From: a virus
Direction: 5' to 3' (one strand)
Length of the DNA: 64,000 nucleotides
IMG/VR virus record: IMGVR_UViG_3300024261_000005
Of the stretch, positions 17,001-37,699 are shown piece after piece. A program made the translations under genes and the position numbers. The notes beneath the pieces were generated by a model. That model did not search any database and was not told where the DNA came from. It saw only the letters and a program-made list of their open reading frames with translations. The stretch's first letter is position 1. Each line of letters opens with the position of its first letter.

Positions 17001-20000
17001 TTTCAACCCTGCAAGTATTTTTCTTTCAGAGGCAGTTTGACTAGTCTCACCAGCTCTAGGTAGGAACTTTATTTCATAGTTATTATTCTCATCTGTGATT
17101 TCAAAGTTGTATGATCTGTCTGTACGATAGATATCAGTTTTTAGATGATATTTTGTGTCGTTGGAGTAAACTTTCGTATCTCTATACAAAGTAGCTATAT
17201 CAGCATCATTTATGCCTAGCTTCTTTTGATTCTCTCTTAAGAACTTAATAAAGTCATCAGGCTTGGTACTAGTAATTTTATAGTTCTCTTCGCGCTCTTT
17301 CTCTCTAGTCTCAGAAACTACACCACTAGTTGTATTAGCAACCTCTCCCTCCTCTGTCTCATCTTGTTCTTCAACTTCAGGTTCGTTATCACCCTCTGCA
17401 GACTCCTCAATATTTCCAGCAGCTTTCTTTGTATAGGAACCTATAGCCTTCTCAACATCATTATTAATATGATCTTTTATTTGCTTTACATAAGTATCGC
17501 CCTGACCGGTACTACCCCAAAAGGCTTTCTTATTTCTCTTGTTGTTCTCCTTGTCGAAGATCTGTTGAACAGTTTTCGTATAGGGGTTTCCTTCGCTAAA
17601 CATAAATTGAATTGTTTTTACAAAATTGATTCCGTTCCCATCATCATGCAAGTATTCTGGATGATCATTTTGCCAGTCTAAAAAAATATCATTAATGAAA
17701 TCATATACCCGAAATGCATCGGCACCACCTTCACCAACCCAACGCCGTCTACCGCGTTTCAAGCCATGCTGTCCGCTTTTAATGCTTGCTGTAGTGACAT
17801 TAAAGTTGGCATCTAAGTGAATGAAGCCGTTAGCTCTGTATGGCTTCCTGCCCATAAATTTCGTGTCGTTAGCAATCGTAACGATATTTACACTAGTCAC
17901 CTCCCCGTTGGTATTAAGGGTCAATAAATCGTCTCCCGACTTGCTACCATAGATCCCTACGCCCAGACAATAACGTCTTTTTGGTCCGAATACGTCATTG
18001 AAGAATCTACGCTCTTCCAACAATTCTATTAAAGCACTCGCCTCCATGGCGTTCATATTGCTTATTCTAATATCTGCAGCAACACCAGTAAAATGATTCG
18101 ATTTGGTCTTTCTACTTTTCCCCGGATTCCATGCATCTAAAGTTGAAAACACATTAATTTTATATGATTTCTCTTTTAGTTTTCCATATTCATTTAATAA
18201 ATCCTGCAATGGATCCATAAAGTTTAAATAGAACTTATAGGCGTTCTCATCTATTGTTGGGCCTGATTTCCCCAAAGCGTTTTTAGCTCCTTCTTTAACT
18301 AACCTCCCTCTTAGATGCCGCTTTGCTTTTCCATAAAACTTGCTGGCACTAAAATATCTTGTATTCCAGTGGAAGGGCACATACTTCGCTTTTGAGTAGC
18401 TGTGCTTTATGGGTTCACCTTTGAGGGCACTACTACCACGAGACCCTGCTGATGACGGCGCATTTACATTGATATCAGACTCTCTTATTATAGATGCATA
18501 GCGGTCTAAATATTTTTCATCTACATCAGAAGTAACAGCTTCTCTAAGCTCTTCCTCATCATAAGGCTTACTCTCACTGAATCTAAAGTTTAAACCAACG
18601 GCTCCTGGAGAGCCTTCTATAGTAAACGTGTCAGTAGAAGAAATTATAAATCTTGGCTTAGAGTCTCTTATGTAGAGCGGCTGAGTTCCCTTATCGTAAT
18701 CAATGATTTTCTCATCCATGTCGGCATATTTAAATGAGCCAACAAGTTTAGTTATTAATGACTCTACTATTATATTTCCTGCATCAGGTATTTGAGGAAA
18801 GTTCTTTGCCATATAGGCTACATGTGCGCGAATACTTTCAAGCTCTTTTATCTTTGGTGGCAGCCCATCGGTGTGGCTTTTACCAATAAAGTTAAATTGA
18901 AATACTGGCTCTATGCTACCTAAGAATTGGTGCGTAGGATACTCATGTCCAAGTATGGGTATCGAACTTATTATGTTTCTTAATGAACAAGAAACATTTG
19001 TGATGTCTTGCTCAAACTTAGGGACTGAATCATAGTTATCATTATTTGTTTTTATGCCTGTAATGTTCTCAACATCTTTTTCAAAGAAATTGGAATCATA
19101 GCTTAGTAATCGAGCTCTTTGAAAAACGTTTTCCAACCCAGCACGATACATATACTGATGATAGTTTTCTTCATCTATCGCCTTCTTTATTCTATCCATA
19201 TAGATTGCATCATTAGAGTTTAAATAATTATCCCCCTGATCAAATTTATGATTTATGGATTTAATCTTTTTATTATATTCTTTAGAAGATTTAACTAGCT
19301 CTTCATTCAAGCCCTTACCTGTCAAACTCAACAGCATGTCATTAATTATTTGAGAGTCTGCAGTAACCGTAACCTCCTGGCTCGTTGGAAAATAACCAAG
19401 TATTGTGCCCGCAGGATTTATATCGTCGTTGTACGTATCGAAGAACTCAGTGAAATCAGCTATAAGTTCAATCCCCTCATATACGATTTTTTTCTCATCG
19501 TCTTTTCCTGTGTTCTGCACGACCGTTATAGTAGTTCCGTTATGAGTTATTTCCCCCGATATCACACTTAATACTGGTGACGCTGGACCTCCCGAGTGAC
19601 TTCGACTTATGTCTGTGATGGTGAATTTTTTATCAGCTTTTTCAGTTATAACAACATTATTTCCAGGTGGGTAATATTTTTCTATACTCCTATCTTCCAA
19701 AGGTCTTAAGTAAGTATAGTCTCTGCCCCACGCACTTGGAACCTCCACAGATATACCTCCAGAATGAACAGGGGTCATATCTGTCAAAGCTTTTGCTTTT
19801 TCTGACTTTAAACTATTAAAGAGATTATGTATCTCGGCTCTGTTTCCTTTTATCTTCTCTTGCTTTTTGGCTTCGTTTAAATTCTTTTTAACCGTGCCTT
19901 TATTCAGGGTTTTTCTATATCTAAATAGAAAGTTTCCTCCCAGTTCCAACGAAATGTATTCTTTGACAACTATCTTTGTATTGAGCCCACTCATAAGTAT

Positions 20001-20945
20001 CGCATGAGTTAGATTTCGCCTGAGTTCAATTAAGCCGTCATCTAATGTTTTTATATGATTATTTCCAGCCTGCACGCTTTTTAGTTCATGCAAACCGACC
20101 ATAGGTTCGTCGCCTACACCTTGCAGTAAGTTGAAGATCCTTTCATTAACTACAATTCTATTAACTGAGCCTTCTGCTGAAGCCGTCATCCCAATGGTTA
20201 TTCCAAAGTTTTCTTTTAAATATTTTAACTGTAAGAAATTGCAATACCTCTTGTATGCATTCGAATCCTTCGGGCTGGATGTTATTCCTACTCCAGCCTG
20301 AGGTACTATTTTAAGTTTCTCCCAATGGGGGGCCGCAAGATTGTTTGTCCTGTTCGAACCATTAATACTAAATTCTTGTTCACTCTTCTTAACAGGGGAT
20401 ACTTTTTGAGAACCTTCAGGAGGAAATACTGAATGCACGTATTCAGAGACTTTTTTTTCTGTAATCGTTTTATGAACGAAATCTTTTTTATAATTCAAGA
20501 CATTCCCGTAAGGCTTGTAGTTGAAGTATCTCAAATCCAACTCAACCAAGAACGCTCCTGGGGAGCTAGGATGGTTGCTGATGTTAAAGCCAAACAGCGT
20601 AAAGTAGTTCTTTTGTTTTGCAGACTTGTGCGTGTCCGATATGCTTTGTGAGAGAAAGTTATTTTCTACCATCACGAATGGATTATTTCTCACCTGAGAA
20701 ATAAGTCTATGTAAAAGCACAATTGAATCAGCTGGAAACGTAATACTTATCTGTGCGTGAAACACTCCGTTGCCAGAAAGCACCTTTGTTGACACTTTGG
20801 ATCTCAGAGTCTTCCACGAATATTCTAATCCTTCTTTATGCACCGATATCGCTGTTGGTGGTACATGCAACTCAATATCATTTATAATAAATCTTGATGT
20901 GAAATCATCTTTCAAAAGATCAGGAATATTATTTAATTGCCGCAT
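11082..20945 (-). CDS. Giant baseplate hub-like protein with Zn-peptidase M15 domain
   Basis: 3287 aa. Hub-like segments IVLRPGVTVQLRAGY...LISGKIADI and YEGSLTILGDTKINPWDVVILHD...VTHMFSFETGFITDI. M15 motifs SNHFTGVAAD (18070-18101) and GFIHLD (about 17810-17828). Several long hydrophobic segments. Confidence 0.75.
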   Translation of the reverse strand: MRQLNNIPDLLKDDFTSRFIINDIELHVPPTAISVHKEGLEYSWKTLRSKVSTKVLSGNGVFHAQISITFPADSIVLLHRLISQVRNNPFVMVENNFLSQSISDTHKSAKQKNYFTLFGFNISNHPSSPGAFLVELDLRYFNYKPYGNVLNYKKDFVHKTITEKKVSEYVHSVFPPEGSQKVSPVKKSEQEFSINGSNRTNNLAAPHWEKLKIVPQAGVGITSSPKDSNAYKRYCNFLQLKYLKENFGITIGMTASAEGSVNRIVVNERIFNLLQGVGDEPMVGLHELKSVQAGNNHIKTLDDGLIELRRNLTHAILMSGLNTKIVVKEYISLELGGNFLFRYRKTLNKGTVKKNLNEAKKQEKIKGNRAEIHNLFNSLKSEKAKALTDMTPVHSGGISVEVPSAWGRDYTYLRPLEDRSIEKYYPPGNNVVITEKADKKFTITDISRSHSGGPASPVLSVISGEITHNGTTITVVQNTGKDDEKKIVYEGIELIADFTEFFDTYNDDINPAGTILGYFPTSQEVTVTADSQIINDMLLSLTGKGLNEELVKSSKEYNKKIKSINHKFDQGDNYLNSNDAIYMDRIKKAIDEENYHQYMYRAGLENVFQRARLLSYDSNFFEKDVENITGIKTNNDNYDSVPKFEQDITNVSCSLRNIISSIPILGHEYPTHQFLGSIEPVFQFNFIGKSHTDGLPPKIKELESIRAHVAYMAKNFPQIPDAGNIIVESLITKLVGSFKYADMDEKIIDYDKGTQPLYIRDSKPRFIISSTDTFTIEGSPGAVGLNFRFSESKPYDEEELREAVTSDVDEKYLDRYASIIRESDINVNAPSSAGSRGSSALKGEPIKHSYSKAKYVPFHWNTRYFSASKFYGKAKRHLRGRLVKEGAKNALGKSGPTIDENAYKFYLNFMDPLQDLLNEYGKLKEKSYKINVFSTLDAWNPGKSRKTKSNHFTGVAADIRISNMNAMEASALIELLEERRFFNDVFGPKRRYCLGVGIYGSKSGDDLLTLNTNGEVTSVNIVTIANDTKFMGRKPYRANGFIHLDANFNVTTASIKSGQHGLKRGRRRWVGEGGADAFRVYDFINDIFLDWQNDHPEYLHDDGNGINFVKTIQFMFSEGNPYTKTVQQIFDKENNKRNKKAFWGSTGQGDTYVKQIKDHINNDVEKAIGSYTKKAAGNIEESAEGDNEPEVEEQDETEEGEVANTTSGVVSETREKEREENYKITSTKPDDFIKFLRENQKKLGINDADIATLYRDTKVYSNDTKYHLKTDIYRTDRSYNFEITDENNNYEIKFLPRAGETSQTASERKILAGLKRYYGQEMLVRSASTKTNTKANAWIINPNSHKAGESLVKTVKKLHQSSTFKVDKSELTSKTAQRDAMKVQLLASNTMLKSFTELASVILTEPYLYTDTKEEFIKEMQFIQSQLYGFSVLPAYYNVIEKLFTGKCTIETGQAALSTRVDKSSVALGGAGLVLTATRAIAAETAILSGGWSLAGQAVIELVVIGYAFSTGLSDDAQLQLNRVRGGIIDHTEALQGRASFQEYLKYFVDNKSSILGDSFKLEDDGVKNAGEFLEGVSDADQVAYSISQHIKPIYADLSIFNTFNKVAGNLDPTSRAMNLIQASLKGNSNLIDDDGIVDKKLSNFALADRITIANMKEYLQFLYMFPEHRDDGDLATNEQNARHIIEELSPFTHYRYNPSLDNDKFDPNAYLYGGDVMQFIGVDGLASAPIRVKNGKWTDRDNIKKYPFLLTHQLTKSDGTPGPRSNGVKHFFDSKKAALKSQQRTKLAYLRSLLKAILDENLHLNADIVEKTGDATLLRVLDGATVFELLETNSYPDIDLPQDPRTPYNNSNLSPCFYYHDQNDTKEILLKDRQKKEMAAANKIIDSSIQFQKGLRAGIFTGSEEKLRGDKEKKEIVNELVDSTEILRTVSDFLIGDEENVQTPAYIAPIAIALNNNDKVLGGSTPIAVTTSAQSVTTVGAQKYSVNKAVAQIDATNKGITGGKFDEKKKQFGEVNSMFGSQLGFKTSGKMDLKAQVDKVNPKIGRTLGLGTQQKYNKQDILDICEDSSGNINKLRTIKEAFPTFRLYIVEEDAIYTDRLTAFDDFFYYNSVISFNVHNSRELASSVATIQVQNISGLLDGTKKNVLRDVDLGEDVEERALEDEGNFIDSIVLRPGVTVQLRAGYESNSNELDILISGKIADINYAQNNTICNLTVQSFGVELEALRKGGEAGTNSDEPGVFYSTHQLLGSMMMSDELKHFGRSKVGAVFQIGEFKDFSLDLDLYKKESSFNFSLSRGFFDWVRDNTFGIGIGVGVLTLGLPALKMAGSTKLVTTVGSYFKPTAGGKLATFGAVTAKIFAWVPTKLSWANPFGVNKIAQQLIIKRAQFLATSMTPQAGAAKIFIANFDDALEFLIRAQGNLGTSMLPRVARTQLRVLGGMSSLLNTGKFAANQAAHGRINGTVVTVFKYIANVLSGGKVNIAPELGEEFLKSIVLKNKGFGALGLSGVAPSRLGKTWLGTKMGGNIIIGAGTSITLPLAIGVSGFATAALLSGLDIIIDSAKYAWNAMMGSFAADKNKLKKKKLLSPQDDNIFAPHPAQYMSNLGTSYSYLESLWSGIELFSKEAWLSGKDIINTSTFGLINISSSKKLETLKLNPFKLIDKRMDVKKHENPFVLTGQTIWQILHECTLRHPGYIYGVRPYGNSLEYRVFFGVPNQRYWCKRITNTEIRKLNKIFMALDTMGEAGLLKENDIKIIFPSAYAQYKESVTNNENEQVLQRFFTQKAYDYYISKTKDRFVPFRQFHLVSSKRNLIGNNIIVSSHNMINAVSVNFINTFTERLKGEEKGSADVNSDVDPSLSKYNQTMETLKFRANNNVGMSQLKEKTVTYRNIVGASNAIRYGLGELLYGTRKMYEGSLTILGDTKINPWDVVILHDDITNMYGPVEVCSVTHMFSFETGFITDIETNALVTANEELSHPVITQSLVYETRAKVFDEYNSLYELGGTAEERKASVKKIVEDEVEEFIEEEMTTNAGFFRKHGGAGLTIDFGGLSDEKRKKLVDQIVEKTMDSYEEDGPSFLRDFVPGDAAVPKELTDMVADVGTLAGGLSLTYLGGEALRNRFATNMGVSIFGGGLWKMGLFFAGSVALAKSSNLLNSTISTSYSSGRLGKNLFRQHIMSRMENGNLIQLYPLVRDGMPLVTGGFEEVDESEKWNNMLGYIFNATSTAVKGYLDRQQELKAYGKDVITAYDKNELNSMKSSIVVNAAKVADAIGIKNADSLLGYMYLDD

Positions 20946-20946
20946 A

Positions 20947-23900
20947 TTAATCTCTCATCATTTTATTCATATAAGCGTTTCCTATTGGTCTTCTATTATC
21001 ATTAATGGTTAATGACGCTTGACCTCCAGAAGATACAAAATGCTTGCCCATGCTTTGGGCTGCTGATAGGTTGGGGGCTTCACCGAACATTCTAATTGAA
21101 CGATTCAATGATACAGTAGAGACTCCGCTATTAATAGGCCTTTCATAGAAATTGTCTGCGCCTGCAATCCTAGAGGGGCTTGGCTGCTTATGCTCTCTAG
21201 AGAAATTCTGCTGAACTGCTCTTTGGCTCAAGCTCTCTCCAGCTTTCAAAGCTTCTCTTGAAGTTCTGTCTGAAAACTTTGCACCTGGCTCTAAACTTCC
21301 TATCTCTTGATTGGCTCCAATAGCATAGGAGGCTAATAAGCCTCCAGCAATAACTCCAGCAAGACCCTTCCCTCTACTAATTGAAGCAGCAAGTGTTTGC
21401 TTTGCACTTTCAGCCCTGGTGAATATATCTTGCAATGCTTCTATATCACCAGTTATGAGACCACCTTCCATAGAATGCCCTCGATTCAATAACTGAAACA
21501 ATTGCTCATGACTGAACCGACTTGATGATTCCAGCATATTGCCAATTCCGCTGGATGAAGTAAACTTGTTCAAATTGTGTTTTTTAACATTTGCAGACAT
21601 CGCATCCCAAGAATCAAACATTTCTTGTACACTCAAGTTCACATTTTCAAGCCCTCTCTTGAAACTTGCAGTCGCATCCCCCTCAGCGATGTTATTAAAT
21701 TTAACACTACTCATCTTAATGCTTAGGTCTGCGTCTGGGCCTTCCAAAATAGTTCCTTTAAAGATCTTCTCTTGGAAGAAGCTTTTAATCGCACTGCCTT
21801 CTCCCGATTCAAAAGAAGTCTTTAATGCTGTCATATATTCTCTAGAAATATCAGCAGCAATTGGAAGCTTTTTACCTTTTATTCCAAGCACCTCTTGGGC
21901 AACTGATATCAATGCAGCTCCAGCTTTTATTCTTTTGAATTGATCTCCAAAATCTCCACCAGTATCGTCTGCAGCCGCCTGAGCTAACCCCAGCATACCG
22001 GCCTTAACCTGAACGTCGAGTCCACCGATACCCTTAACTATTTGCTCTTTTTGAAATTCATCAACTAGACTTTGTGCAAGTGTAAGTTTCGAAGCGCCCA
22101 TGCGCTCACCTAACTTCTCTACACCTTCGCCAAGTACGTGCATGCTGCTTAGAAACTCAGCGCCATAGGTTATCATCTTCTCGGGATTTACATGGCCTGC
22201 TGAAATCTTATTCCTAAGCGTCTTATCAGTGTCAAAGAAGACTTGATAAGGATCTGCGTCATAGTCACCAATACCGAATCTAGTAAAATCCATTCTTCCT
22301 GAATACTTCGATACAACTCCTGTAGCCTTGTTTTCAATATCCATGTCAAGTTCAATTTGTGGAAAGCGGATTGTACCACCACCATGCTCCCCGAACTCCT
22401 GATGTGCACCATACATCTTATGGAAGATCCTTCCAAAGGCGTCTTCAACGTCGGCGTTAGCCTCACCCCGGTTTATTTTTTGCTCAATCTCGGCTAAGTG
22501 AGAGCCCTTAGTCACGCTCCCTCCGTGGAATTCATCCAGAATTCTCAAATCCTTGTCAACGTATTCAGCACCTTGAAGTTTTTCTCCAGTGAATTCAGCA
22601 GCATCTTTAACGCTTGGGTGCTTTTCCATTTGAAGTCGTTCAACCTCACTAAGCTTCATATCTAAAGAATCTTCTCCCTTCAAATCTTTGATAGGAGCTA
22701 GAGTCTCCTTTATTTCAGCTTGCTCTGCTTGAAGTGCTTTTATTTTTTCGTCTCTTTTATGCAACTGACCATATGTTTTATCCTGGGGGTCGTGCATCCG
22801 ATTTAATTCAGCCTCAATCTCTCTATGCCTAATCCTATTTAAAAAGAAATCATCCTCAGGACTGACCTGTTCTCTTCCGAATCGAGGATTAACTACGCCT
22901 GTTAATTGCTCAAAAGCATTTATACGAGATACCTTCGGAGCAAATGCAATCCTGTCCTGGTTTGCCTCAATTGCTTTCGGACCTATTCCTTTCACTCTGG
23001 ATTGCAAATCATCAAATGATTTAAACTTCTCCTTTTTTCTTGCCGCTATTATATTATCTGCAACCTCAGAGCTTATAGCTTTTCCACGAGATGGTTTAAG
23101 AGTTTCTAAAAGCTGCTTTTTGCTAGCTTTGTTAATGTCGATTCTAGCATGTCTTGTAGAGGCAGCGCCTTTCACATCCTCAACATAGGTTCCATATTGA
23201 ATTCGTTCAATTTTTCTATTGAACTTTTCTTTCCCCTCCCCCCCCATTCTAGTGTTTAATCTCTCCACTTCGTTAGCTCGGTAAGTCTTGCCATTTGCGG
23301 AGCCTTCTTTTTCAAATGTCTCACCAAGCGCATCATTTATTTTATCAAACTGCGTAACTTGGTAAGTACTCCTCTGAGAGGTAAATCCCTCAGCATTCAA
23401 TCCGAAGAAGCTACCCATGCGATTTAAGAAGTGACTAGCTTCGTCCCTGTTCTCGAAGTATCTATAACGATAGTCTTTTTCATACTGAATAACGCCATCT
23501 ACCTTTAGGGGCACCTTTATCTTTCTACCCGTTGGGCCTGGCGCCATGGTCGTCTTCTCTTTTCTTTCACCAGCGAAATCCTTACCTAAATCATGCAAAG
23601 TCTCTTCATAGATCTCCTCTACTGATTTCTGTACATTTCCTAAAGATACGTCATCTCCACCGAGAATCTTCCTTCCATAATAGTCAACATTAAATTCATC
23701 TTTAGCCAATTGGCCCCTAACATCGTTTAATTGCTTCTCTTGCTTTTTCATCAGCTTGTTAAGCACCTCTAATTCTTCCTCTACTGCTTCCAATTTTCCT
23801 GGAGACTGTTTTAAGAGTGGGTCTCCACTTGTCATTGCGTTGTAAAGTCTACGCTGTTCTGACAATTCCCGCATCTCATCGCTGGCAAGTTTAGTCTCAA

Positions 23901-26900
23901 CTCCTCGTTTAGTGAGCCTCGTCTCGTCGATCTCGTCTATGAGCTTCCCTTCTCTGTGCAATCTTCGATTATGGGCATTGTCTAGTTCTCTGTCTAAGAC
24001 TCCCATCTTCCTTTGATCTCGCTCAATTGAATAGGAATCTCCCGCTTCCCCTTTATAGAGTGCTCTTTTTCTCTCCATGTATTGCTCATAACCACCCTGC
24101 TTGATTTCTCCTTTCTCTTGGTTCAAGAGTCGTCTATGCTCTCGATAGTTATCAAGCTCGTCACCCTGAAGCTTTTCGTACTCAGTTGAAATCTGATCTC
24201 TTCTATCATATATGTTGCTTCGTTTTTCTACAGTGTTGATTTTCTCATGATTTTCTAAGAGAGCATCTACTCTTGGCTGTTTAGCTAATTTTCGAACCTC
24301 TTTCAAATGAGCTTTATAGTCATCAGTACGCTCTTGCCCTGGCTTATTCCTTAAGAGTTCAAGTGGTTTTAATTTATCAGTAAAATCATACTGATACAAA
24401 CCCATACTAGCCCAAACGTGAGCGAAACCCATTAGCGGGTTTCTTATTGTAGTTCCAGAGGTGCCCGTCTTCTTCGCTCGATGCATCCCTAGGAAGAAGT
24501 CTTTTAAAGTTTGATTCATCAATTTTCTTGACTCTTCCTTGACGGAGGTGCTTCCTTGCTGAGTTAGGTGTTTACTCAGAGCGGACTCATATTTTGTCAT
24601 TCCGTCAAGGAACGCCTGCTGATCTAGAAAGGCGACGTAGCCTTTCTCTTGATTTACTACCTCAGTTAAACTTCGGTTTATCTTGGCATTAATAAAAAGA
24701 TTGTCGCTGAAAACAGTACCTTCCATATGCTTACCAGGGGTTTTCCCTAAGGTGAACCCACCACCCATGTAAGACCCAGAGCCAGTCACTCGACCTGACA
24801 AGCTGTGTTTCACTGCAGCGCCTGCAACTTTACTTAAAGACTTCCGAACAGTGGCAAAGCCTTTCATTGCGCTGTCAATTTGATCCGCATCTTCTCCTGC
24901 GTCTTTGAGACCAGATAAAGACGACAATAAGTCGGTTACATTACGACCGTACTCCGCCTCTATCTTTATAGTCTCTTGTGATGATTTTATTTCATGTCCA
25001 ATAAACCCTTTAAAAGTGTCTTCTCCAGGTAGGAAAATCTCCTTCTTGCCTCCAGTTTGTTCATATAACTTACTCAAGGCATCTTTGGAAAGTCCCATAT
25101 CCTCTAGATTTATTATGTTGCCGCTTTTAACTTCAGAGAGTTTGCTTACTACCTGCCTTTCTTCTCCTTGTCCTAGTTCAAGTAAGTTAGTCACTTCTTC
25201 ACGAGACATCGTTCTTACGTCTTTCAATCCTGATATCTGCTCTTGAATGTTTTCAGCACTCGCTTGGCCTAAAGATTCTTGAGCCACTTTCATACCAATA
25301 AGACCAGAAGCCCTATCTTCGAATCCCTCCATCCTCATCATATATGAGGAAAGGTAACCTGTTGCTTCTTTGCTATCCATCCCCCAAAAACCCCTAAGTG
25401 AGGTGTAAAGATAGTTTGCGAATCTGGGCTCAGCTTTAGCTGTATTCCTTGCAAGATTCGTATGGGGTGTGCCAGCGGTAGCGGAGGCTGCGCCAATCAC
25501 AACTCCTTGTTTAGCCATCTCGCCAGTCTTTTTTAAGTAATTGTCGGCCTCTGCTCCAGTAATTCCAGCAGTTTCCAAACCTGCTTTAATTTTATTCTGA
25601 AAATATTCCAAATCCATTCCATGTTTGCTGTTAACTGCTCTATCGTGAGCGAGAGATAATACTAAGCCAAAGTTATCTGCAGATATCCCCTCCTTACCTG
25701 CTCTCTCTGCAATAGTTTCAAAGAACTTACCTAACGTGCCTGCTTCTCTCTGCTTAACTGTTGCTTGATCTAAGCTTGTAATTGTAGCACCCTTCAGACG
25801 ACTGTTTACTTCAGCTAGTAGCTTGTCACCATCATTAGTAGCCTCTAGTTGTTTCATTAAGATGTCTTCATCCATACCTAGCATTCTCATACCACCGTGA
25901 ATTTGCGTCCTAAGATAAGTTCCAGATTTTTCAACTTGGGCTGTCGTTGTTAATAGCGTATTCGCTATTTTACCACCGAATCTACTTGGATCAAAAAATG
26001 CCTCCCCTACGTCTTCTAAGCCTAGGCTACTTAATTTATTAATCATACTTCTTTGGCTTATCGTCAACGTAGTGTCTTTTGCTAAAGCTGAAAACAATTT
26101 ACTATGAGACACGTCTTGTTCAATCTTACCAATAATGTGATAGCGATCTCTGTTTGTCTCCATGCTCTTTTCACTTAAGCCCAAGGTGAAGCGACGTAGG
26201 CCTTGGTGCTTTTTAATATGTACCACCCTGTCATCTTGTCTACCCAGAACAGCACGTCCCTCTGAATCTCCAAATTGCTTAAAGAAATCGTCAATGTCAA
26301 AGTCATCTCCATCAATCGTACTACCAATAGTTAAAAACTTCTGCGTATCGTCTCTTCTTGCTTCTAAAAGCTTAGTCATTAATTTGCTTTGACCAAGACC
26401 CTCTCTATTCACAGTCTTGCTTATATCCTGCTTCACTTGAATAGTACCGCCCATGTAGCTCATACCTTCGGCAAGGCCAAGCTTTGCTGTATTCTCGCGA
26501 CCTTTGAAAAGCATTATTGCCCCCATATTAACTCCACGGGCATGCTTTCCAAGCTTAGCGTCGCTGGTTACCCCAATTAATTCTGATCCCGTGCCACTAA
26601 CTTTAATGCCACCCCCAGCAGGAATACCCGCTTTATAAGCGGCTATCTCTTTTTGTTTCTTCTTTAATTTACTTCTTTCCCAGAACGGATTGGGCGCGGA
26701 CGCCACTCTACTTTCCAACAGTTCCTCTTCCTTAACAAGCTTTGCTAAGTGCGCTTTTTCCTGCATCACTTTAACACGACTTCTTTGTCCAAAAGTAGAG
26801 TCAGGGGTGCTACCATCAAAGCCAGTTGCCACTTCGGGACGTCCATGAAGCTGAGACCCACGCGCAGTTTGTGGAAGCAAACTCCTATCAAGATGCCCAT

Positions 26901-28389
26901 AGCGTTGCATCAAATTGAATGCTGTGGGAGTCAAATCGCCACTCTTTGTTCGCAATGATTCAACATGACCAACGACACGGGTTCTATTAAGATCAAATGG
27001 ATCTACAAATCTAGAGGTTAAAGTTTGCGCACCTGAAGTACCCCCGTAACCTTCCTGTGTGTACTGCAGTATAGCTTTAGTTACTTGTTCTCTATCTTTG
27101 GCTGCAAAATGTTCTAGTCCTGCAATCTTATGTATATTGGACTGCAAGGTTCTGGAAGATGCAATTGCAGATTGCAAATCTTGATCGATTAGCGAGACTA
27201 CCTTACCGTTCACAGTTCTAGTTTCATTCAAACCTTCCATCATTGCTCTGGGTGCTTCAATGGACATTGATCTAATATAATCGTTGTATTGATTTATATT
27301 TCTAGTACTAAAATTCTGTAGTGATGTTCTGTTTTCTCTTAGTAATTGGAACAAGTGGTCTTCTAATGAAACGGTGGCTTTCTTAATTGCGTCGTCTGCA
27401 CTTATTCCTCCTGGTCTAGATAATCTCTTCAAATCCAGTTCAGGGAATAACTTGGTGGCGTCAATAACACCACCAGCTGTTTGGTATCTTGTTGATAAAT
27501 TTTCAGTTCCCCTGATAATTTTAGCACCAGTTTCTCCGTGTTCTTGCAAGTCCAATGCTACATTCTGATATCTGCCTCCAGCATGCTGTATTCGAGCATA
27601 TACTGAAAGCTGCCCGCTCGTTTTTGCTTTGCCACCAAACTCATCAATTGAAACAAGGCTAATATTCTTAGCACCAGGAACCATATTTTTAAGTTCAGCA
27701 AACTTCTTCTTCCCAACAACAGACAGGCTGTCTTCCCTAGCAGACTTCCAGCTTACTGTACTTGTTCCTTCAGCTGTAAAGTCTTTCATGACGGAGTCGA
27801 ATTGACCTCTAGTCTTTAATGCGGAACTATGCTGCCTTTTAAAGGCTTCAAGCCTTGGGCCACTTGTCTCTATGTTTTGCTTATAGAACTGTATCGCCGT
27901 ATTCTTATCGTTCTCCTCAATAGTGCCCCCTTTGCCTACACCCTCATAAAGGTTTTCAATTGATGCTTTTAAGCTACTAGAGTCATCTACTAGCTCATCA
28001 CTAGCACTATCAAATAGCGCTGATAAGAACGCTCGCGCACCTTCTGCATCACCCCCCTGCTTAAATAACTCCTCTAACTTATCGTCACTTAGTATAGTAG
28101 TTTTAAACTTCTCTAGACTGGTTCTCTTGCTGGCGTCGAGTATAGCTTTTAATTCATCTGCGTCGCTTCTGAGGGCACGTCCAGCAGCACCAAGCTCATT
28201 GCCTGATGCGGAGGAGTTTTTTAAAACTCCATATGTTTTTTTAACTCCACCAGTTAAGTTTATGTTCTTGTTCAGGTAATACGCCGTTCCAGCAACAGCA
28301 ACACCGCTAAGTAGCGTTCGCCCACTATTCCTTATTTCCTGTTTTTCATTCTCTCTAGTTTGCTCATTTAACAGATTTATTAGTGACAT
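20947..28389 (-). CDS. Giant tape-measure-locus protein with putative two-barrel RNA polymerase motifs and ComEA-type HhH domain
   Basis: 2480 aa. SGRVTGSG (R1200), IRNP (R1316), HhH domain IDINKASKKQL...FKSFDDLQSRVKGIGPK (about aa 1749-1815), and TIRFP...GDYDADPYQVFF (D2042/D2044/D2046). Hydrophobic segments near both ends. Confidence 0.65.
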   Translation of the reverse strand: MSLINLLNEQTRENEKQEIRNSGRTLLSGVAVAGTAYYLNKNINLTGGVKKTYGVLKNSSASGNELGAAGRALRSDADELKAILDASKRTSLEKFKTTILSDDKLEELFKQGGDAEGARAFLSALFDSASDELVDDSSSLKASIENLYEGVGKGGTIEENDKNTAIQFYKQNIETSGPRLEAFKRQHSSALKTRGQFDSVMKDFTAEGTSTVSWKSAREDSLSVVGKKKFAELKNMVPGAKNISLVSIDEFGGKAKTSGQLSVYARIQHAGGRYQNVALDLQEHGETGAKIIRGTENLSTRYQTAGGVIDATKLFPELDLKRLSRPGGISADDAIKKATVSLEDHLFQLLRENRTSLQNFSTRNINQYNDYIRSMSIEAPRAMMEGLNETRTVNGKVVSLIDQDLQSAIASSRTLQSNIHKIAGLEHFAAKDREQVTKAILQYTQEGYGGTSGAQTLTSRFVDPFDLNRTRVVGHVESLRTKSGDLTPTAFNLMQRYGHLDRSLLPQTARGSQLHGRPEVATGFDGSTPDSTFGQRSRVKVMQEKAHLAKLVKEEELLESRVASAPNPFWERSKLKKKQKEIAAYKAGIPAGGGIKVSGTGSELIGVTSDAKLGKHARGVNMGAIMLFKGRENTAKLGLAEGMSYMGGTIQVKQDISKTVNREGLGQSKLMTKLLEARRDDTQKFLTIGSTIDGDDFDIDDFFKQFGDSEGRAVLGRQDDRVVHIKKHQGLRRFTLGLSEKSMETNRDRYHIIGKIEQDVSHSKLFSALAKDTTLTISQRSMINKLSSLGLEDVGEAFFDPSRFGGKIANTLLTTTAQVEKSGTYLRTQIHGGMRMLGMDEDILMKQLEATNDGDKLLAEVNSRLKGATITSLDQATVKQREAGTLGKFFETIAERAGKEGISADNFGLVLSLAHDRAVNSKHGMDLEYFQNKIKAGLETAGITGAEADNYLKKTGEMAKQGVVIGAASATAGTPHTNLARNTAKAEPRFANYLYTSLRGFWGMDSKEATGYLSSYMMRMEGFEDRASGLIGMKVAQESLGQASAENIQEQISGLKDVRTMSREEVTNLLELGQGEERQVVSKLSEVKSGNIINLEDMGLSKDALSKLYEQTGGKKEIFLPGEDTFKGFIGHEIKSSQETIKIEAEYGRNVTDLLSSLSGLKDAGEDADQIDSAMKGFATVRKSLSKVAGAAVKHSLSGRVTGSGSYMGGGFTLGKTPGKHMEGTVFSDNLFINAKINRSLTEVVNQEKGYVAFLDQQAFLDGMTKYESALSKHLTQQGSTSVKEESRKLMNQTLKDFFLGMHRAKKTGTSGTTIRNPLMGFAHVWASMGLYQYDFTDKLKPLELLRNKPGQERTDDYKAHLKEVRKLAKQPRVDALLENHEKINTVEKRSNIYDRRDQISTEYEKLQGDELDNYREHRRLLNQEKGEIKQGGYEQYMERKRALYKGEAGDSYSIERDQRKMGVLDRELDNAHNRRLHREGKLIDEIDETRLTKRGVETKLASDEMRELSEQRRLYNAMTSGDPLLKQSPGKLEAVEEELEVLNKLMKKQEKQLNDVRGQLAKDEFNVDYYGRKILGGDDVSLGNVQKSVEEIYEETLHDLGKDFAGERKEKTTMAPGPTGRKIKVPLKVDGVIQYEKDYRYRYFENRDEASHFLNRMGSFFGLNAEGFTSQRSTYQVTQFDKINDALGETFEKEGSANGKTYRANEVERLNTRMGGEGKEKFNRKIERIQYGTYVEDVKGAASTRHARIDINKASKKQLLETLKPSRGKAISSEVADNIIAARKKEKFKSFDDLQSRVKGIGPKAIEANQDRIAFAPKVSRINAFEQLTGVVNPRFGREQVSPEDDFFLNRIRHREIEAELNRMHDPQDKTYGQLHKRDEKIKALQAEQAEIKETLAPIKDLKGEDSLDMKLSEVERLQMEKHPSVKDAAEFTGEKLQGAEYVDKDLRILDEFHGGSVTKGSHLAEIEQKINRGEANADVEDAFGRIFHKMYGAHQEFGEHGGGTIRFPQIELDMDIENKATGVVSKYSGRMDFTRFGIGDYDADPYQVFFDTDKTLRNKISAGHVNPEKMITYGAEFLSSMHVLGEGVEKLGERMGASKLTLAQSLVDEFQKEQIVKGIGGLDVQVKAGMLGLAQAAADDTGGDFGDQFKRIKAGAALISVAQEVLGIKGKKLPIAADISREYMTALKTSFESGEGSAIKSFFQEKIFKGTILEGPDADLSIKMSSVKFNNIAEGDATASFKRGLENVNLSVQEMFDSWDAMSANVKKHNLNKFTSSSGIGNMLESSSRFSHEQLFQLLNRGHSMEGGLITGDIEALQDIFTRAESAKQTLAASISRGKGLAGVIAGGLLASYAIGANQEIGSLEPGAKFSDRTSREALKAGESLSQRAVQQNFSREHKQPSPSRIAGADNFYERPINSGVSTVSLNRSIRMFGEAPNLSAAQSMGKHFVSSGGQASLTINDNRRPIGNAYMNKMMRD

Positions 28390-28394
28390 ATTAT

Positions 28395-31300
28395 CTAACC
28401 TCTTATAGCTAAGCTTAACATTGAAAGAATTTCAGAACTTCTATCATCATTATAATATATTTCTGCTCTACTATTCTCATATGGAGCATGAGAAGTATTA
28501 ACAAGCATTCTACTAAAATCCAGTCCAGTGGAATTTTTCATTCCTCGCACCAGTCTATTTCTAGCGGAGTTTCTGGACGGACCTGGGTTTTCGTACATAA
28601 ACATGTCAGAACCTTCTAAGAATGGACGCCTGGACGCTCTACGCACCTGTGAGTTCCATACGTCATAGTCATGCGTTTCGGCACCACTGTTATCTATGTA
28701 CTTGACTTTCACATCTTCCATGTCAACGTCTTTGTGCCATCCGATCCAGTCAGGTGGCGGCAAGGGCTGGTTTATAAAATGGTCTTCGACCTCAGAAAGT
28801 TTATCGAACATGTAGTTCTGATCTATTGAGCCTTTTGGATCTGCACCTATTAGAGACATCTTCTCGCCAGAATCCATCCGATTCCACACAGAGGTATATA
28901 AATGCTTCTGATCTTCAGGCACTAACTCTAATATTCTTTCTCGATCTTTTCCAGATGCATTCGCAAACGAATCAAAGAAGCGCTTCTCCGCATTAGGTAG
29001 CGACAAATAAAGCCCTAGAGCGTCTCCATTTGGGTTGACGCCAGTCCTGGTTTGACCAGCCATACGCATATAACGTGTTTTGTCATTTGCGTTTTCTGCA
29101 TTCTGAGCTAGCTTCATGTATTTTAAAAATTGTAATTTATCGAAATGCTCGTCCAGTTCTTCTCTTTTTTGAACGTGCATTGGTTTTCCATCCCAGCCCA
29201 TTAAATTCGCAGCGCTATAAAATGCTGGTCGGAACCAATCCCTTACATGCTTGTCCCAAAATGCATTAGTAGTCCCATATATTCTCTCTTGTTCATAAGT
29301 CTCAATTGCAGAGCGAGTTCTACCCAGTAGCTTCTGAGTAGGCCTGAAGCCGCCTGGCATTAAGTATTCAACTGGAGCAGTAACTTTTCGAATTATAGAT
29401 TCTGCACCTTGATACATTGATTTCGTTATGTCAGAAACCACGGGTATCTTGATCGCATTCTTGGCGTAATCAAAATCTCTCGTTGAAGCTAGTCGTTTTT
29501 GATGTGCCTCTGATGCATTGTCCAGTATCCTGTTTTCAAGCTCCGTCGTTAAGCCTGCAGCTCTTCGCTCCATAAGTTGATTTCGAAGCCGCATAGTCTC
29601 TCTGGACTTAGATGATAAATCAGATAGTATTTTATACTTGTGTACGTCTGGGTAGTCTTCAGGATCCATTCCCTTTAACTCAGGATTTAAAGCCTCGTAT
29701 GCCTTTCCTGGCATTCTTGCGAACCCGTTTGGTATCGACCTGTAAGGGTCGCCCCTCTTGTAGCGTGCTGGCATCCAAGATGGCATTGTATTAGCGATTG
29801 GATTGTACTTTTCGATATCTGATCTTGGTCTAGGAAGCATTCGCCTTATAGGCTCTGAGGTGAATGCCATGCCACCAAGATCCATATCCCAATAATCTAA
29901 AATTGCAGAGTCCATATCGGACGAACTAGCCATCATGAATTCTCTAGTACCAACAGTCTCTCTTCCTGTTACTAATTTTTGTAAATAGTTTTTAGTGTAC
30001 CCAGTGAGGCCTTCAATCTCTCTAAATTGATATTGCATACCCCCAATCATTGAAGTCATTGAATATGGACTTTTAGGGGTGCCTGGACCTATTTGACCAA
30101 GATCTGAACTTGAACCAAACTCTTGTAAAAATGCTGTCTCTCTCACTCCTCCTGAATTTATTTGCGACAGTTCTTCTTCATGCATTAACTTCGGTGGCTT
30201 TATTATCCTGCCAATAGTATTTGAAAGTATCCCTCCTAGGACGGGGACGTCTTCAAATGCAGCACCTGAAATTGGATAAGGCCTATCGTAATAGTTCTTC
30301 TCTTCAAGATGGTAAGTGAAGTTCTTCAAGAAAAATCTAGTTAATGGTGAATGCTCATCGGTTTCATCCCCCCAGACAGCTCTTTCTTTTGCTTGGGTCA
30401 TTAAGGATACGTATGCGTGCGGTCTAAAATAACTTGTTTCGTTTCCCTCTAACGGGGTTCCACCACCTTCCCACCAGCGACCCTTTTTAATTTCAACTAA
30501 TTTCTTTCCTGAATAAATCTCTTTTAATTCATCAGGATTCTCCATCGTACCTAACAACCCTCCTGTTAGGAGTTGGTGTGCTCCAGCGACGCCTAAGAAT
30601 AACGCGCCAAATCTCCTAAAGATTGGCGAGGCATTTAACCCCTTGGCAAACTCATCATAAGTCTTAGTAACCTCGTCTCCACCTATGTTTCTAGTTACTT
30701 CCCCTTTCATGGATGCGCCGAAAAACGAATGATATATCTCTGCGCCAAAGATCTCAGTTCGCCTTAACATATTATCAAGTAGAGATCCGCCTTGATATTT
30801 ATTATTTATAATTTCAATTCTATCAAGTAGAGATCTATTTAGATCATTCTTATTATGGTATTCATCGAAAAAGGCTGATCCGACTTTAGCATCCATGGAG
30901 TAATTGAAGTCTAGTATCCTTTTTTCAATTTCAGAAGTATCGGTTATACCTGCACCTTTAAAAAGATCTTTATTTTTGTTAAAGAAATTCATTAAATCTT
31001 TTGTTTGCGTTTTACTGAGATCGGCCTTCCCTTTTCCATCCAAGATGTCATTCACTCGACGAGTGTAGTCCATATACTGTGGGGAAGTTTCGGAAATACC
31101 ACCTAGTTCTTTGGCCAGTGGATTGTATTTTTGAAATGTTTCGTTAAACTCCCCGCCAATCTTAACTGGCGTTAAGGCATCGTATACCTCGCTAGCATTT
31201 ATTTGAGCTTTTGTTAATGGAATCTTTATATCCCCTGAAGCACCACTAACAAAGCCAACCCGATCTTTAACTAGCTGTGGAAGCAATTTACTTGCGAACT

Positions 31301-32789
31301 CATCAACTTGAGTCAAGTTGCTTGCAGCACTTCTCTTCAGGAAGTTCTGTCCATACCCCTTGTACGAAAGCGCAGCAACACCTAATCCTAAAAACAGACT
31401 AGTAGAGGTATCTGTGAATCCCGGAAGCACACCCTCTATACCTCGCTTGAGATAGGACATCCCTGTGATTTGCCCAAGGTAAGATCTGCCAACATCTACA
31501 TTTACTGCTGTAGTGGCAAGCCCTTCGATAACACCTTTGTCAAATCCTGGCATTAGCATTTGTGCTAAGAATGCAGCACCACCAACTTTCATTGGAGCGA
31601 TCTTTGGACTGCCTTTCGCCATCTTACTGTACAGATAGCCAACTCCAGCAGCAACTCCAGCAGAAGCAACTGCATTCCCACCAAGACCATAATTCCTTCT
31701 ATAGTGGTCTATAGTTTGCAACCCTATAGCTGCTGCACCAATTTTACTTGCCTTGTAGCCTATTTCAAAGAACTGCTTATAAAACGGTCCAGGCTTCGTG
31801 GAGAGACCCAGACCTGTAGCTTCCCCAAAGTCTCCTAGTACTTTTCCAAAAACTGGTATCTGTTCTTTCGTTGCTGATATCAGCCTATTAAATCTGTTGA
31901 GTCCTGTTGAAAGGTAAGCTGTTGCAAGCGAGGTGCGTCTTCTCAAATCGCCAAGCGTTGAGAAGGCTCCTCTTGTTGAAGCTACCAGACCTAAGCGCTC
32001 AACGCTTCCATCGCTACCCTTGAATACATCGTCAAAGATAACCTCTGGTATATCAAGGTTTTGAAGAGACCCCTGATATGCAGGATTGATTTTTCCACTA
32101 ATATCAAGGTCTTCTATCTTATCGTATAAATCCGCACCATATCTTAAGTTTTGAACTGCTACATCTTCCGAAAGCAGTTTAGCACTTCCTGATTTAACTC
32201 GTTTGGAAATTTTAGTTCCAGTTATTTTTCCTGCGGCATCGACTTCATCTTCTGTAAAATCTTCGAGCTGCTCAAAGATTAATCGGCCACGCCCTCTTTG
32301 ATCCGCTTTCTGCTCATAAGTTAACTTAAAAGTCTCATCATCTTGTGTGCTTAGGTGCGTTGTTATCTGACTGTAAGCGTCTTCCCCAACAAGCTCTCTT
32401 ACAACTTTTTGTGTACTTTGCGTATGTAAGGAATCGGCCGAATAGGTATATTTAAAAGTTTCGCTTCCATCAAATCCTGAGATGCCCTTCTCCATGCCCA
32501 GTGCATCTGGAGAGGCATACGGACTCATGAACTCAGGTATTCTGAAAGTATTAGCAAACCCAAATGGGGTTTTGTTTGCTAGGTTCCTGATCTGCGCTTG
32601 AAAGATATCATACTTAGTATATCTAGCATCGGCACTCCCCCCATAAGGGGAGTGCATCATGTATTTTGCTGCACCTATACCGACAGCATACGGGGTTAAA
32701 GATAGCGCCCCCTCAATTAGTGGGTGCATCTCTGGCTCAGCAGCTACCGCTGAATAGAAAATACTTCCTGGTCCTTGCTGAGTAAACAT
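28395..32789 (-). CDS. Tape-measure-like / ejected virion protein
   Basis: 1464 aa directly after the tail chaperones, with several Gly/Ala-rich hydrophobic helices and no recognisable catalytic motif. Confidence 0.55.
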   Translation of the reverse strand: MFTQQGPGSIFYSAVAAEPEMHPLIEGALSLTPYAVGIGAAKYMMHSPYGGSADARYTKYDIFQAQIRNLANKTPFGFANTFRIPEFMSPYASPDALGMEKGISGFDGSETFKYTYSADSLHTQSTQKVVRELVGEDAYSQITTHLSTQDDETFKLTYEQKADQRGRGRLIFEQLEDFTEDEVDAAGKITGTKISKRVKSGSAKLLSEDVAVQNLRYGADLYDKIEDLDISGKINPAYQGSLQNLDIPEVIFDDVFKGSDGSVERLGLVASTRGAFSTLGDLRRRTSLATAYLSTGLNRFNRLISATKEQIPVFGKVLGDFGEATGLGLSTKPGPFYKQFFEIGYKASKIGAAAIGLQTIDHYRRNYGLGGNAVASAGVAAGVGYLYSKMAKGSPKIAPMKVGGAAFLAQMLMPGFDKGVIEGLATTAVNVDVGRSYLGQITGMSYLKRGIEGVLPGFTDTSTSLFLGLGVAALSYKGYGQNFLKRSAASNLTQVDEFASKLLPQLVKDRVGFVSGASGDIKIPLTKAQINASEVYDALTPVKIGGEFNETFQKYNPLAKELGGISETSPQYMDYTRRVNDILDGKGKADLSKTQTKDLMNFFNKNKDLFKGAGITDTSEIEKRILDFNYSMDAKVGSAFFDEYHNKNDLNRSLLDRIEIINNKYQGGSLLDNMLRRTEIFGAEIYHSFFGASMKGEVTRNIGGDEVTKTYDEFAKGLNASPIFRRFGALFLGVAGAHQLLTGGLLGTMENPDELKEIYSGKKLVEIKKGRWWEGGGTPLEGNETSYFRPHAYVSLMTQAKERAVWGDETDEHSPLTRFFLKNFTYHLEEKNYYDRPYPISGAAFEDVPVLGGILSNTIGRIIKPPKLMHEEELSQINSGGVRETAFLQEFGSSSDLGQIGPGTPKSPYSMTSMIGGMQYQFREIEGLTGYTKNYLQKLVTGRETVGTREFMMASSSDMDSAILDYWDMDLGGMAFTSEPIRRMLPRPRSDIEKYNPIANTMPSWMPARYKRGDPYRSIPNGFARMPGKAYEALNPELKGMDPEDYPDVHKYKILSDLSSKSRETMRLRNQLMERRAAGLTTELENRILDNASEAHQKRLASTRDFDYAKNAIKIPVVSDITKSMYQGAESIIRKVTAPVEYLMPGGFRPTQKLLGRTRSAIETYEQERIYGTTNAFWDKHVRDWFRPAFYSAANLMGWDGKPMHVQKREELDEHFDKLQFLKYMKLAQNAENANDKTRYMRMAGQTRTGVNPNGDALGLYLSLPNAEKRFFDSFANASGKDRERILELVPEDQKHLYTSVWNRMDSGEKMSLIGADPKGSIDQNYMFDKLSEVEDHFINQPLPPPDWIGWHKDVDMEDVKVKYIDNSGAETHDYDVWNSQVRRASRRPFLEGSDMFMYENPGPSRNSARNRLVRGMKNSTGLDFSRMLVNTSHAPYENSRAEIYYNDDRSSEILSMLSLAIRG

Positions 32790-34445: not shown

Positions 34446-34916
34446 TCATTTGTTTTTGTATTCTAATGATCTACCTAAAAAACCATATTCTTCTAATATA
34501 ACTTGTTCGGATATTTGTACAGTTTGCCCGCGTGAAATCAAATAACAAGTTTTAATTATTATGTCGCTTTGATCTCCAAAGCTAACCTTAATATCAAATG
34601 CACTTGTTAAGAAACCATTATAAGACATCACGGGGCTTCCCATCGTATTAGCTGGTTCTTTTAGTATGTCTGTTAAGATATAATCTGGTTTGACATAATT
34701 TACAACAAAATTTCCTTGAACAATTTCCCTTCCAGGGAGCATGGCATCGAATTGCGTAGATGCATACCCGTATATTGGTTGCTGAGAGTTCTGAATACTA
34801 TAGCTTATTCCTGCACACTCTAGAACGTCCTGATATTTATGATCACCTGAATCTGCATTACTAAAAGCTATGTTTACATTAGCACCTGAAAAATATTCGT
34901 AATTATAAAAACTCAT
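34446..34916 (-). CDS. Tail tube-family protein (paralog 4)
   Basis: 156 aa. EYFSGANV...GISYSIQNSQQPIYGY...GREIVQGNF...ILEEYGFLGR aligns with the main tube motifs. Confidence 0.7.
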   Translation of the reverse strand: MSFYNYEYFSGANVNIAFSNADSGDHKYQDVLECAGISYSIQNSQQPIYGYASTQFDAMLPGREIVQGNFVVNYVKPDYILTDILKEPANTMGSPVMSYNGFLTSAFDIKVSFGDQSDIIIKTCYLISRGQTVQISEQVILEEYGFLGRSLEYKNK

Positions 34917-34918
34917 GG

Positions 34919-35860: not shown

Positions 35861-35869
35861 TTGATACTC

Positions 35870-37624: not shown

Positions 37625-37699
37625 AGAACCTCCACGCAGCAAGAGAAAATATTTTATATATTATCTATAGCACTTATTGCGAGGAGTTATCTATATCAA

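Follow-up and report, generated by a model that had tools for sequence, protein, structure and literature searches.

We examined P0001, the 2480-amino-acid (aa) product of an open reading frame (ORF) at positions 20947..28389 on the minus strand of a 64,000-nucleotide (nt) stretch of IMG/VR virus record IMGVR_UViG_3300024261_000005. This stretch, referred to here as the window, comes from an uncultured marine phage of ~160 kb, and the frame is open over all 2480 codons. We conclude, with a probability of about 0.7, that P0001 is a single-chain two-barrel RNA polymerase (RNAP) that is built into the virion, ejected at infection, and transcribes the first phage genes. By sequence comparison, it belongs to a previously unannotated, sequence-isolated family. 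The assignment to single-chain two-barrel RNAPs had been made from the letters of P0001 alone (the sequence-only reading), and it is now supported by a predicted fold and by invariant catalytic-type residues; the enzyme is presumably active and DNA-dependent. Packaging of P0001 in the virion and its injection are suggested by the position of the gene and by analogy to characterized phages.

The sequence-only reading had listed a series of RNAP-like motifs, all of which we recovered at the same residues and in the same order: SLSGRVTGSG (R1200), YVAFLDQQAF, TIRNP (R1316-N-P1318), GGTIRFP, and GDYDADPYQVFF, together with LAEG (E641) and SKLFSALAKD (K764/K771) nearer the N terminus. Of these, YVAFLDQQAF is a possible counterpart of the CGLP motif of beta'. 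The Asp loop D2042-Y-D2044-A-D2046 (GDYDADPYQVFF) is located at nt 22252-22266. One DxDxD motif in 2480 aa is approximately what chance would provide; conservation and fold are therefore the test in a protein of this size. A decoy DxDxD motif, DFDID, is present at aa 696-700 (window positions 26290-26304) in the beta-like module described below. Its conservation is confined to the close clade of P0001 homologues, and its letters are the same as those of the catalytic loop of gp66 of crAss-like phages.

A word-seeded search yielded 16 homologues of P0001 with 31-75% identity. Across this close clade (P0001 plus 16), E641, K764, K771, G1203-S-G1205, R1316-N-P1318, GGG2003-2005, P2010, D2042, A2045, and D2046 are invariant, and D2044 is kept in 16/17 sequences, with Val in homologue P0015. 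We then searched 1.84 billion cluster representatives with a profile (A3) made from aa 545-1345 only, which ends ~700 residues before the Asp loop. This profile matched 99 representatives, corresponding to 99 family clusters defined at 50% identity, of which 89 matched at E <= 1e-10 and many are 1650-1830 aa long. Nearly every full-length match carries GD[FYWH]D[GA]D ~100-130 aa beyond the matched part. A core alignment (A4) of 61 sequences with 17-45% identity to its first row, whose members were likewise gathered by the profile without the Asp loop, shows D2042, D2044, D2046, K764, and P1318 in 61/61 sequences each. R1316 and R989 are each present in 60/61, E987 in 57/61, and G2003/G2005 in 59-60/61, while position 771 is K in 57 sequences and R in the other 4. 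A basic residue, K or R, occupies position 1200 in 52/61. In the C-terminal helical part of the core, K2114, E2115, E2166, and K2173 are present in 58-60/61 sequences, and K2171 is likewise near-invariant. The conservation of DxDxD among homologues, which the sequence-only reading had named as a check, is thus seen for all three Asp residues across diverse relatives.

The same alignment does not bear out the suggestion of an unusual DYDAD active site. Position 2045 is G in 40 and A in 19 of the A4 sequences, and the loop of distant members is mostly GDFDGD, often followed by Q, W, or Y, like NADFDGDQ in beta'. Judged from these sequences, DYDAD is a derived, clade-specific form (G-to-A and F-to-Y) of the canonical DFDGD loop that most distant members keep, and not a distinct active site.

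For structure prediction we chose P0011 (1814 aa, from a Logan contig of 21,664 bp), an insertion-short natural homologue whose whole core fits one prediction. AlphaFold2 with the A4 alignment modelled the core of P0011 (P0011:523-1686), to which P0001 is 41% identical, with a mean pLDDT of 88.4 and a pTM of 0.88. The model consists of a beta-rich N-terminal module with two lysines on adjacent strands and a later barrel on which the elements G-K/R-x-x-G-S, R-x-P, GGG-x-x-x-FP, and DxDxD succeed one another along the strands, followed by long helices. The core is accordingly predicted to contain two double-psi beta-barrels (DPBBs), beta-like and then beta'-like. A separate model of P0001 aa 1150-2347 (pLDDT 81, pTM 0.55) has the same barrel strand order.

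The closest structural relatives of the P0011 model are two-barrel RNAPs, which, together with the two double-psi-barrel modules, is the outcome that the sequence-only reading had anticipated for structure prediction. In a Foldseek search against the Protein Data Bank (PDB), the first match was the beta' subunit of the AR9 non-virion RNAP, and the highest probabilities went to Rpb2 and poxvirus RNAP chains, with Rpb2 chains reaching 0.96. A VIA-align search of 48,161 PDB representatives, which is independent of Foldseek, placed two-barrel RNAPs in all of its top 14 rows (13 polymerases of the family and one beta-type chain). The highest scores were those of QDE-1 (7y7p_A, Z 10.4 over 348 aa; 7y7t_A, Z 10.4 over 331 aa, rmsd 4.2), followed by maize ZmRDR2 (7w84_A, Z 9.6), vaccinia Rpo147 (8.9), Rpb1 (8.7), and P74-26 gp62 (8.6 over 289 aa). 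Also matched were Pol I/III/IV, archaeal A', the phiKZ and AR9 non-virion RNAPs (~7.5), M. tuberculosis beta' (7.3), and P23-45 gp96 (6.2 over 325 aa). When Foldseek's 1000 best chains were realigned, all 50 rows listed were RNAPs, such as E. coli beta' (Z 8.8 over 377 aa).

These matches also divide the model between two modules. Chains of beta' and Rpb1 align 330-410 residues of model residues 439-1131 (Z 7.3-8.9), and beta-type subunits match model residues 6-375 with Z 6.4-7.9 (8qma_A, 7.9 over 176 aa, rmsd 3.4; 4c2m_B, 6.9; 6j9e_C, 6.4). The designed DPBB 7dww_A aligns over 84 of 86 aa with an rmsd of 2.6 within model residues 599-870. Practically all matches listed belong to one superfamily, and the single-chain enzymes among them span both barrels. 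QDE-1 and RDR2 rank first, with a margin over beta'/Rpb1 (Z 8.7-8.9) that is smaller than 2 and too small to fix the clade. The list for P0001 aa 1150-2347 is dominated by the insertion described below and contains Rpb1 at Z 7.4 over 254 aa. The structure of gp66 (6VR4) is not among the rows listed by VIA-align, which says nothing about the gp66 fold.

Mapping the models onto P0001 gives the following layout. An N-terminal region (aa 1-590, 26620..28389) precedes the core in nearly all full-length members, the family core starting at about residue 470-600. The beta-like module (aa ~597-978, 25456..26601), mapped from the P0011 model and supported by the beta-type matches, contains the predicted barrel DPBB-B (aa ~618-776) with K764 and K771 at nt 26077-26100. 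The beta'-like module, also mapped from the model, extends over aa ~1043-2313. Within it, the first half of its barrel, DPBB-A (aa ~1199-1333, 24391..24795), appears as strands in both models and includes the L-x-G-[KR]-x-x-G-S motif, with R1200, as well as R1316-N-P1318 (nt 24436-24444). The second half (aa 2006-2052, 22234..22374) comprises the GGG-x-x-x-FP strand and the putative metal-binding loop G-D2042-Y-D2044-A-D2046, which lies between strands in both models. The C-terminal helical part of this module (aa ~2057-2313, 21451..22221), in which the beta'/Rpb1 alignments run to model residue ~1130, has long helices where beta' has the bridge helix and trigger loop. The remaining C-terminal tail (aa 2313-2480, 20950..21453) has low pLDDT in both models. 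It includes the sole strongly hydrophobic segment found in P0001 by a hydropathy scan (aa 2341-2359) and an end motif in which N2413, Y2415, R2417, P2418, and I2419 are invariant in the close clade; an anchoring or packaging role of this tail is possible. All features given here and below by window coordinates are on the minus strand, which carries all large ORFs of the window.

The two halves of DPBB-A are separated by a clade-specific insertion of ~640 aa (aa 1345-1985, 22435..24357), which sits between the R-x-P hairpin and the GGG-x-x-x-FP strand and appears as long coiled-coil hairpins in the P0001 model. Charged residues make up as much as 45% of it. Among aligned homologues, the length of the insertion ranges from ~58 aa in P0011 to ~1290 aa in P0016; because it is so variable, we regard it as accessory, and because P0011 has only ~58 residues at this site, as dispensable for the core fold. 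The insertion of P0001 contains a ComEA-type double helix-hairpin-helix, or (HhH)2, DNA-binding domain (aa 1747-1817, 22939..23151). This domain was recognized both by Pfam (HHH_3 at aa 1749-1814, E 2e-9, 37.8 bits versus a cutoff of 27) and by structure, with ComEA (8dss_B) matching the P0001 model with Z 10.1 and rmsd 1.4 A over 64 aa at 30% identity.

Several results weigh against the polymerase assignment. No sequence search ties the P0001 family significantly to any known RNAP. When the A4 profile was run on PDB sequences, the sole match was AR9 beta' at E 3.1; here R-N-P (on LNRNP) and GDxDGD are aligned in order, and this is not significant alone. An hhalign comparison of the family with Cellulophaga phage phi14:2 gp66, the virion RNAP of crAss-like phages (bioRxiv 10.1101/2020.03.07.982082; PDB 6VR4), used a single-sequence template and aligned the Asp loops only (E 0.18). 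A comparison with the family of P0018, a second polymerase candidate discussed below, likewise aligned only these loops (E 0.15). The whole-core model is that of homologue P0011 and not of P0001, Foldseek gave no PDB match at E <= 1e-3, and VIA-align Z scores of 8-10 are moderate for a model of 1164 residues. The homologue P0015 (2778 aa) reads GDFVAD and has therefore lost the middle Asp, which may reflect a sequencing error or an inactivated copy. Lastly, the sequence-only reading had offered, as weaker elements, an acidic motif and a two-Lys motif of the beta-type barrel. The lysines K764 and K771 hold across the family, whereas E641 is conserved in the close clade only and occurs in 30/61 of the A4 sequences.

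Other searches for known relatives were likewise negative. Pfam recognized HHH_3 and no RNAP domain in P0001, PHROGs gave nothing for P0001 or distant members, and phmmer of P0001 against PDB sequences returned only noise. A tblastn search of P0001, P0109, and P0064 against 50,697 GenBank phage records found no match, and profiles A4 and A5 had none in Acinetobacter phage ME3, Moorella phage MTATph1, or Bacillus phage 0305phi8-36. In the literature searched, we found no description of the P0001 family, and none of the loops DYDAD, DFDAD, and DWDGD is entered in the survey table of phage RNAPs in the study of P23-45 (PMC10770324). RNAP families are reported to share little sequence beyond the DxDxD region (PMC10770324), and the nonsignificant sequence links obtained here agree with that statement.

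The tail context that the sequence-only reading claimed for P0001 is borne out by the gene order. P0001 was found on contigs of up to 161,753 bp; among its IMG/VR relatives is a genome of 161,781 bp that is flanked by direct terminal repeats and classed as complete. PHROG matches identify the terminase large subunit (59289-61499), portal (50090-51583), and major capsid protein (45335-46666), followed by a 975-aa sheath-like protein (38628-41555; weak PHROG match, E 1.2e-7) and four paralogous proteins of 156, 313, 590, and 300 aa in the position of the tail tube (34446-38602). All four paralogues match phrog_9206, which is labelled "major head protein", yet they come right after the sheath-like gene, the usual place of tail tube proteins; we consider the label doubtful. 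After two small genes comes a trio of giants of 1464, 2480, and 3287 aa separated by gaps of 5 nt and 1 nt. The upstream giant (1464 aa, 28395..32789) has no recognized domain and gave no family match in Pfam, PHROGs, or an Atlas feature search. The downstream giant (3287 aa, 11082..20945) is a probable tape-measure/ejection protein with a wall-hydrolase-like part. It matches phrog_20474 ("endolysin") at E 1.2e-43, with the best stretch at aa 2786-2972, and Pfam found nothing in it or in its C-terminal 1306 aa. Small genes in baseplate position follow the trio, and then a baseplate wedge protein (8499-9743; phrog_6, E 2.6e-29).

The trio therefore takes the place of the tape measure and hub within a contractile-tail module. 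The synteny of the three genes is retained in family members that are only ~20% identical, in the form of a gene for ~1340-1430 aa, the polymerase-like gene, and a gene for 3030-3390 aa, the product of which has a weak Peptidase_M23 match in distant loci. BLASTP among the three giants of the window detected no common N- or C-terminal signal. Because the P0001 gene is the middle one of a conserved trio between tube-like paralogues and baseplate, its protein is most likely located in the virion or tail interior. By terminase, the closest cultured phages are Moorella phage MTATph1, Bacillus phage 0305phi8-36, and Acinetobacter phage ME3, which are only 24-28% identical.

Two-barrel RNAPs carried in the virion have been demonstrated for crAss-like podoviruses (bioRxiv 10.1101/2020.03.07.982082), for jumbo phages of the phiKZ type, where the enzymes are multisubunit, and for Thermus siphoviruses, where they are fused to the tape measure (PMC10770324). 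One parallel in gene arrangement is P23-45, in which the tape-measure-fused virion RNAP gp96 coexists with the non-virion RNAP gp64, as also in P74-26, G20c, and TSP4 (PMC10770324; PDB 8h2m, 8f5m). Like gp96, P0001 is a two-barrel polymerase in one chain whose gene lies at the tape-measure locus, and like P23-45, the genome has elsewhere a second, very different candidate gene for a single-chain polymerase. P0001 differs in being, here and in distant loci, a separate ORF with its own stop codon and with neighbors that are 1-5 nt apart or overlap, and in belonging to a trio of giants of a contractile-tailed phage rather than to a siphovirus. There is no detectable sequence similarity to gp96, and the structural match noted above is weaker than those to QDE-1 and beta'; in P0001, moreover, the barrel is split by the HhH/coiled-coil insertion, and the loop is DYDAD versus DFDGD. 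P74-26 gp62, the homologue of gp64, is the better structural match of the two Thermus enzymes. With phi14:2 gp66, P0001 has in common a giant single chain (~2200 aa in gp66), a variant DxDxD motif (DFDID in gp66), and a gene next to those of giant virion proteins (g065 and g067), whereas gp66 comes from a podovirus of the Crassvirales.

QDE-1 and plant RDR2 resemble P0001 in having both barrels in one chain and are its best structural matches. However, these are cellular RNA-copying enzymes and YonO is a prophage enzyme; none belongs to a tail module, and identity is 8-11%. The YonO-like DNDGD loop in this genome is found in P0018 and not in P0001. As for multisubunit beta/beta', the motif series L-x-G-K, R-x-P, G-x-x-x-x-P, and GDFDGDQ keeps the order found in beta', but P0001 is one chain without a Pfam RNAP domain match, and no sandwich-barrel hybrid motif or flap was identified in it. 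In phiKZ-like phages, by contrast, the virion RNAP is multisubunit and its genes lie outside the tape-measure slot. The virion RNAP of phage N4 is a functional analogue, being a giant virion-carried polymerase injected for early genes (PMC7824862), but it is a T7-like right-hand polymerase of unrelated fold.

P0018 (2175 aa, L004:11308-17835) is encoded on the same contig ~8 kb past the window end, divergent from the terminase operon. It contains an HhH motif, FGRTPNQ, and CGDNDGD, and both RTPNQ-x-H-x-T-x-R and C-G-D-N-D-G-D are invariant in 16 P0018 homologues. DNDGD is the loop given for YonO-type enzymes in the survey table (PMC10770324). P0018 is probably a non-virion RNAP of the YonO type. 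The two complete IMG/VR relatives with the tail-module polymerase also both encode a P0018 homologue (E = 0 and 3.3e-7). BLASTP detected no significant similarity between P0001 and P0018, and beyond the loop no relatedness of the two families was detected.

We also observed an element in which TTTAATTTAYNCY..CTTTAATGGA stands between a terminator hairpin and a second hairpin (L004:9886-9909 and L004:11203-11225; L022:~8085-8120, minus strand). The element precedes both a 373-aa gene and the P0018 gene; at the latter it comprises TTTAATTTA...CTTTAATGGA and a hairpin. A related genome has it at the corresponding place, ahead of its P0018 homologue. The element is not enriched in the late-gene window, and we regard it as a candidate early promoter.

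We considered what else P0001 might be. If its RNAP-like motifs had arisen by chance, P0001 would be an ordinary tape-measure or tail-internal protein, as its locus, the lack of any RNAP family match by sequence, and the chance expectation of a single DxDxD in so large a protein would allow. This explanation is essentially excluded by motifs that are invariant over 61 sequences recovered with a profile lacking the Asp loop, and by a confident, non-fibrous globular model for which RNAPs top two independent structure rankings. It is also improbable, though much less so, that the two-barrel fold serves another chemistry or role, such as RNA-dependent RNA polymerization, DNA synthesis in the manner of a primase or PolD, or a structural or ejection function in which the fold serves mainly as a scaffold. 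The fold alone leaves template and product unfixed: the best structural matches, QDE-1 and plant RDR2, copy RNA, and archaeal PolD is also in the two-barrel superfamily (PMC7281927). However, the tested phage relatives of the QDE-1 clade (gp66, YonO, and P23-45 gp64/gp96) are DNA-dependent RNAPs (PMC10770324), P0001 has an inserted ComEA-type domain of a kind that binds duplex DNA, and strict conservation of all catalytic-type residues argues against a mere scaffold.

Alternatively, P0001 could be a real two-barrel polymerase that is not delivered through the tail, being made with the late genes and acting inside the cell as a late or second non-virion RNAP, or being packaged in the head instead. 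Two intracellular enzymes are conceivable in a genome with a second polymerase candidate, and the hydrolase-like part typical of tape measures belongs to the third giant and not to P0001. We nevertheless judge this unlikely, given that the gene lies between the tube-like paralogues and the baseplate, 1-5 nt from its giant neighbors in a trio conserved to ~20% identity, and that polymerases encoded at such positions in P23-45 and crAss-like phages are virion proteins (PMC10770324; phi14:2 g065-g067 annotation). We therefore favor a virion-delivered, single-chain two-barrel RNAP.

The results presented above led us to consider how a virion-delivered P0001 could act. The beta-like module would contribute K764 and K771, and the beta'-like module the R-x-P strand and the Mg-binding loop D2042-x-D2044-x-D2046, so that a single active site would arise where the two barrels meet, by analogy to cellular RNAP, QDE-1, gp66, and gp96. 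The coiled-coil stalk with its ComEA-type HhH domain would probably hold duplex DNA. Built into the virion or tail interior and ejected at infection, P0001 would transcribe the first phage genes, which may include the gene for P0018, and P0018 would then take over. A precedent for such a relay exists in P23-45, where gp96 transcribes the gp64 gene (PMC10770324). More tentatively, and with considerable doubt, we speculate that the trio forms a tail-lumen ejectosome, in which the polymerase would pass through the tail tube either in front of the DNA or together with it, grip the entering duplex through its stalk-mounted ComEA-type domain, and transcribe pre-early genes including the second polymerase. 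Genome entry might in this way be coupled to transcription, as part of a self-contained two-polymerase cascade in an entire lineage of uncultured myoviruses of ~110-230 kb with distant relatives in cultured cyanophages such as Ma-LMM01.

The principle of a virion-borne polymerase is already known, though so far from no more than a handful of unrelated phages, through gp66, gp96, the phiKZ-type enzymes, and, with another fold, N4. What is new here is an unannotated, isolated family, a free-standing gene within a giant trio of contractile-tailed phages, and an HhH insertion that splits the barrel. If our reading is correct, the virion-RNAP strategy extends to contractile-tailed phages of the ocean and other metagenomes, and a function can be offered for some of the largest "hypothetical" phage proteins. 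The family would also add a very divergent branch for tracing RNA polymerase evolution and would indicate that a catalytic barrel tolerates insertions of hundreds of residues with a DNA-binding domain. A further prediction is that abundant uncultured marine phages, and possibly cultured Microcystis phages as well, carry out early transcription independently of the host RNAP.

Two further observations were made on other loci. Just upstream of the terminase operon, a 1394-aa protein with a Pfam match to staphylococcal nuclease (SNase) is encoded at 62614-63990 and runs past the window (L001:5814-9998). In Microcystis phage Ma-LMM01, gp080 (a 3562-aa "hypothetical protein"; NC_008562.1 57700-68388, L015:17701-28389, minus strand) has the sequence LGDFDGDTFSAIFF and is matched by the family profile around the Asp loop with E 1.8e-4, and structural matches in BFVD fall on proteins of Ma-LMM01, MaMV-DC, and Acinetobacter phage ME3. 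Distant kin of the P0001 family may therefore exist in a cultured phage.

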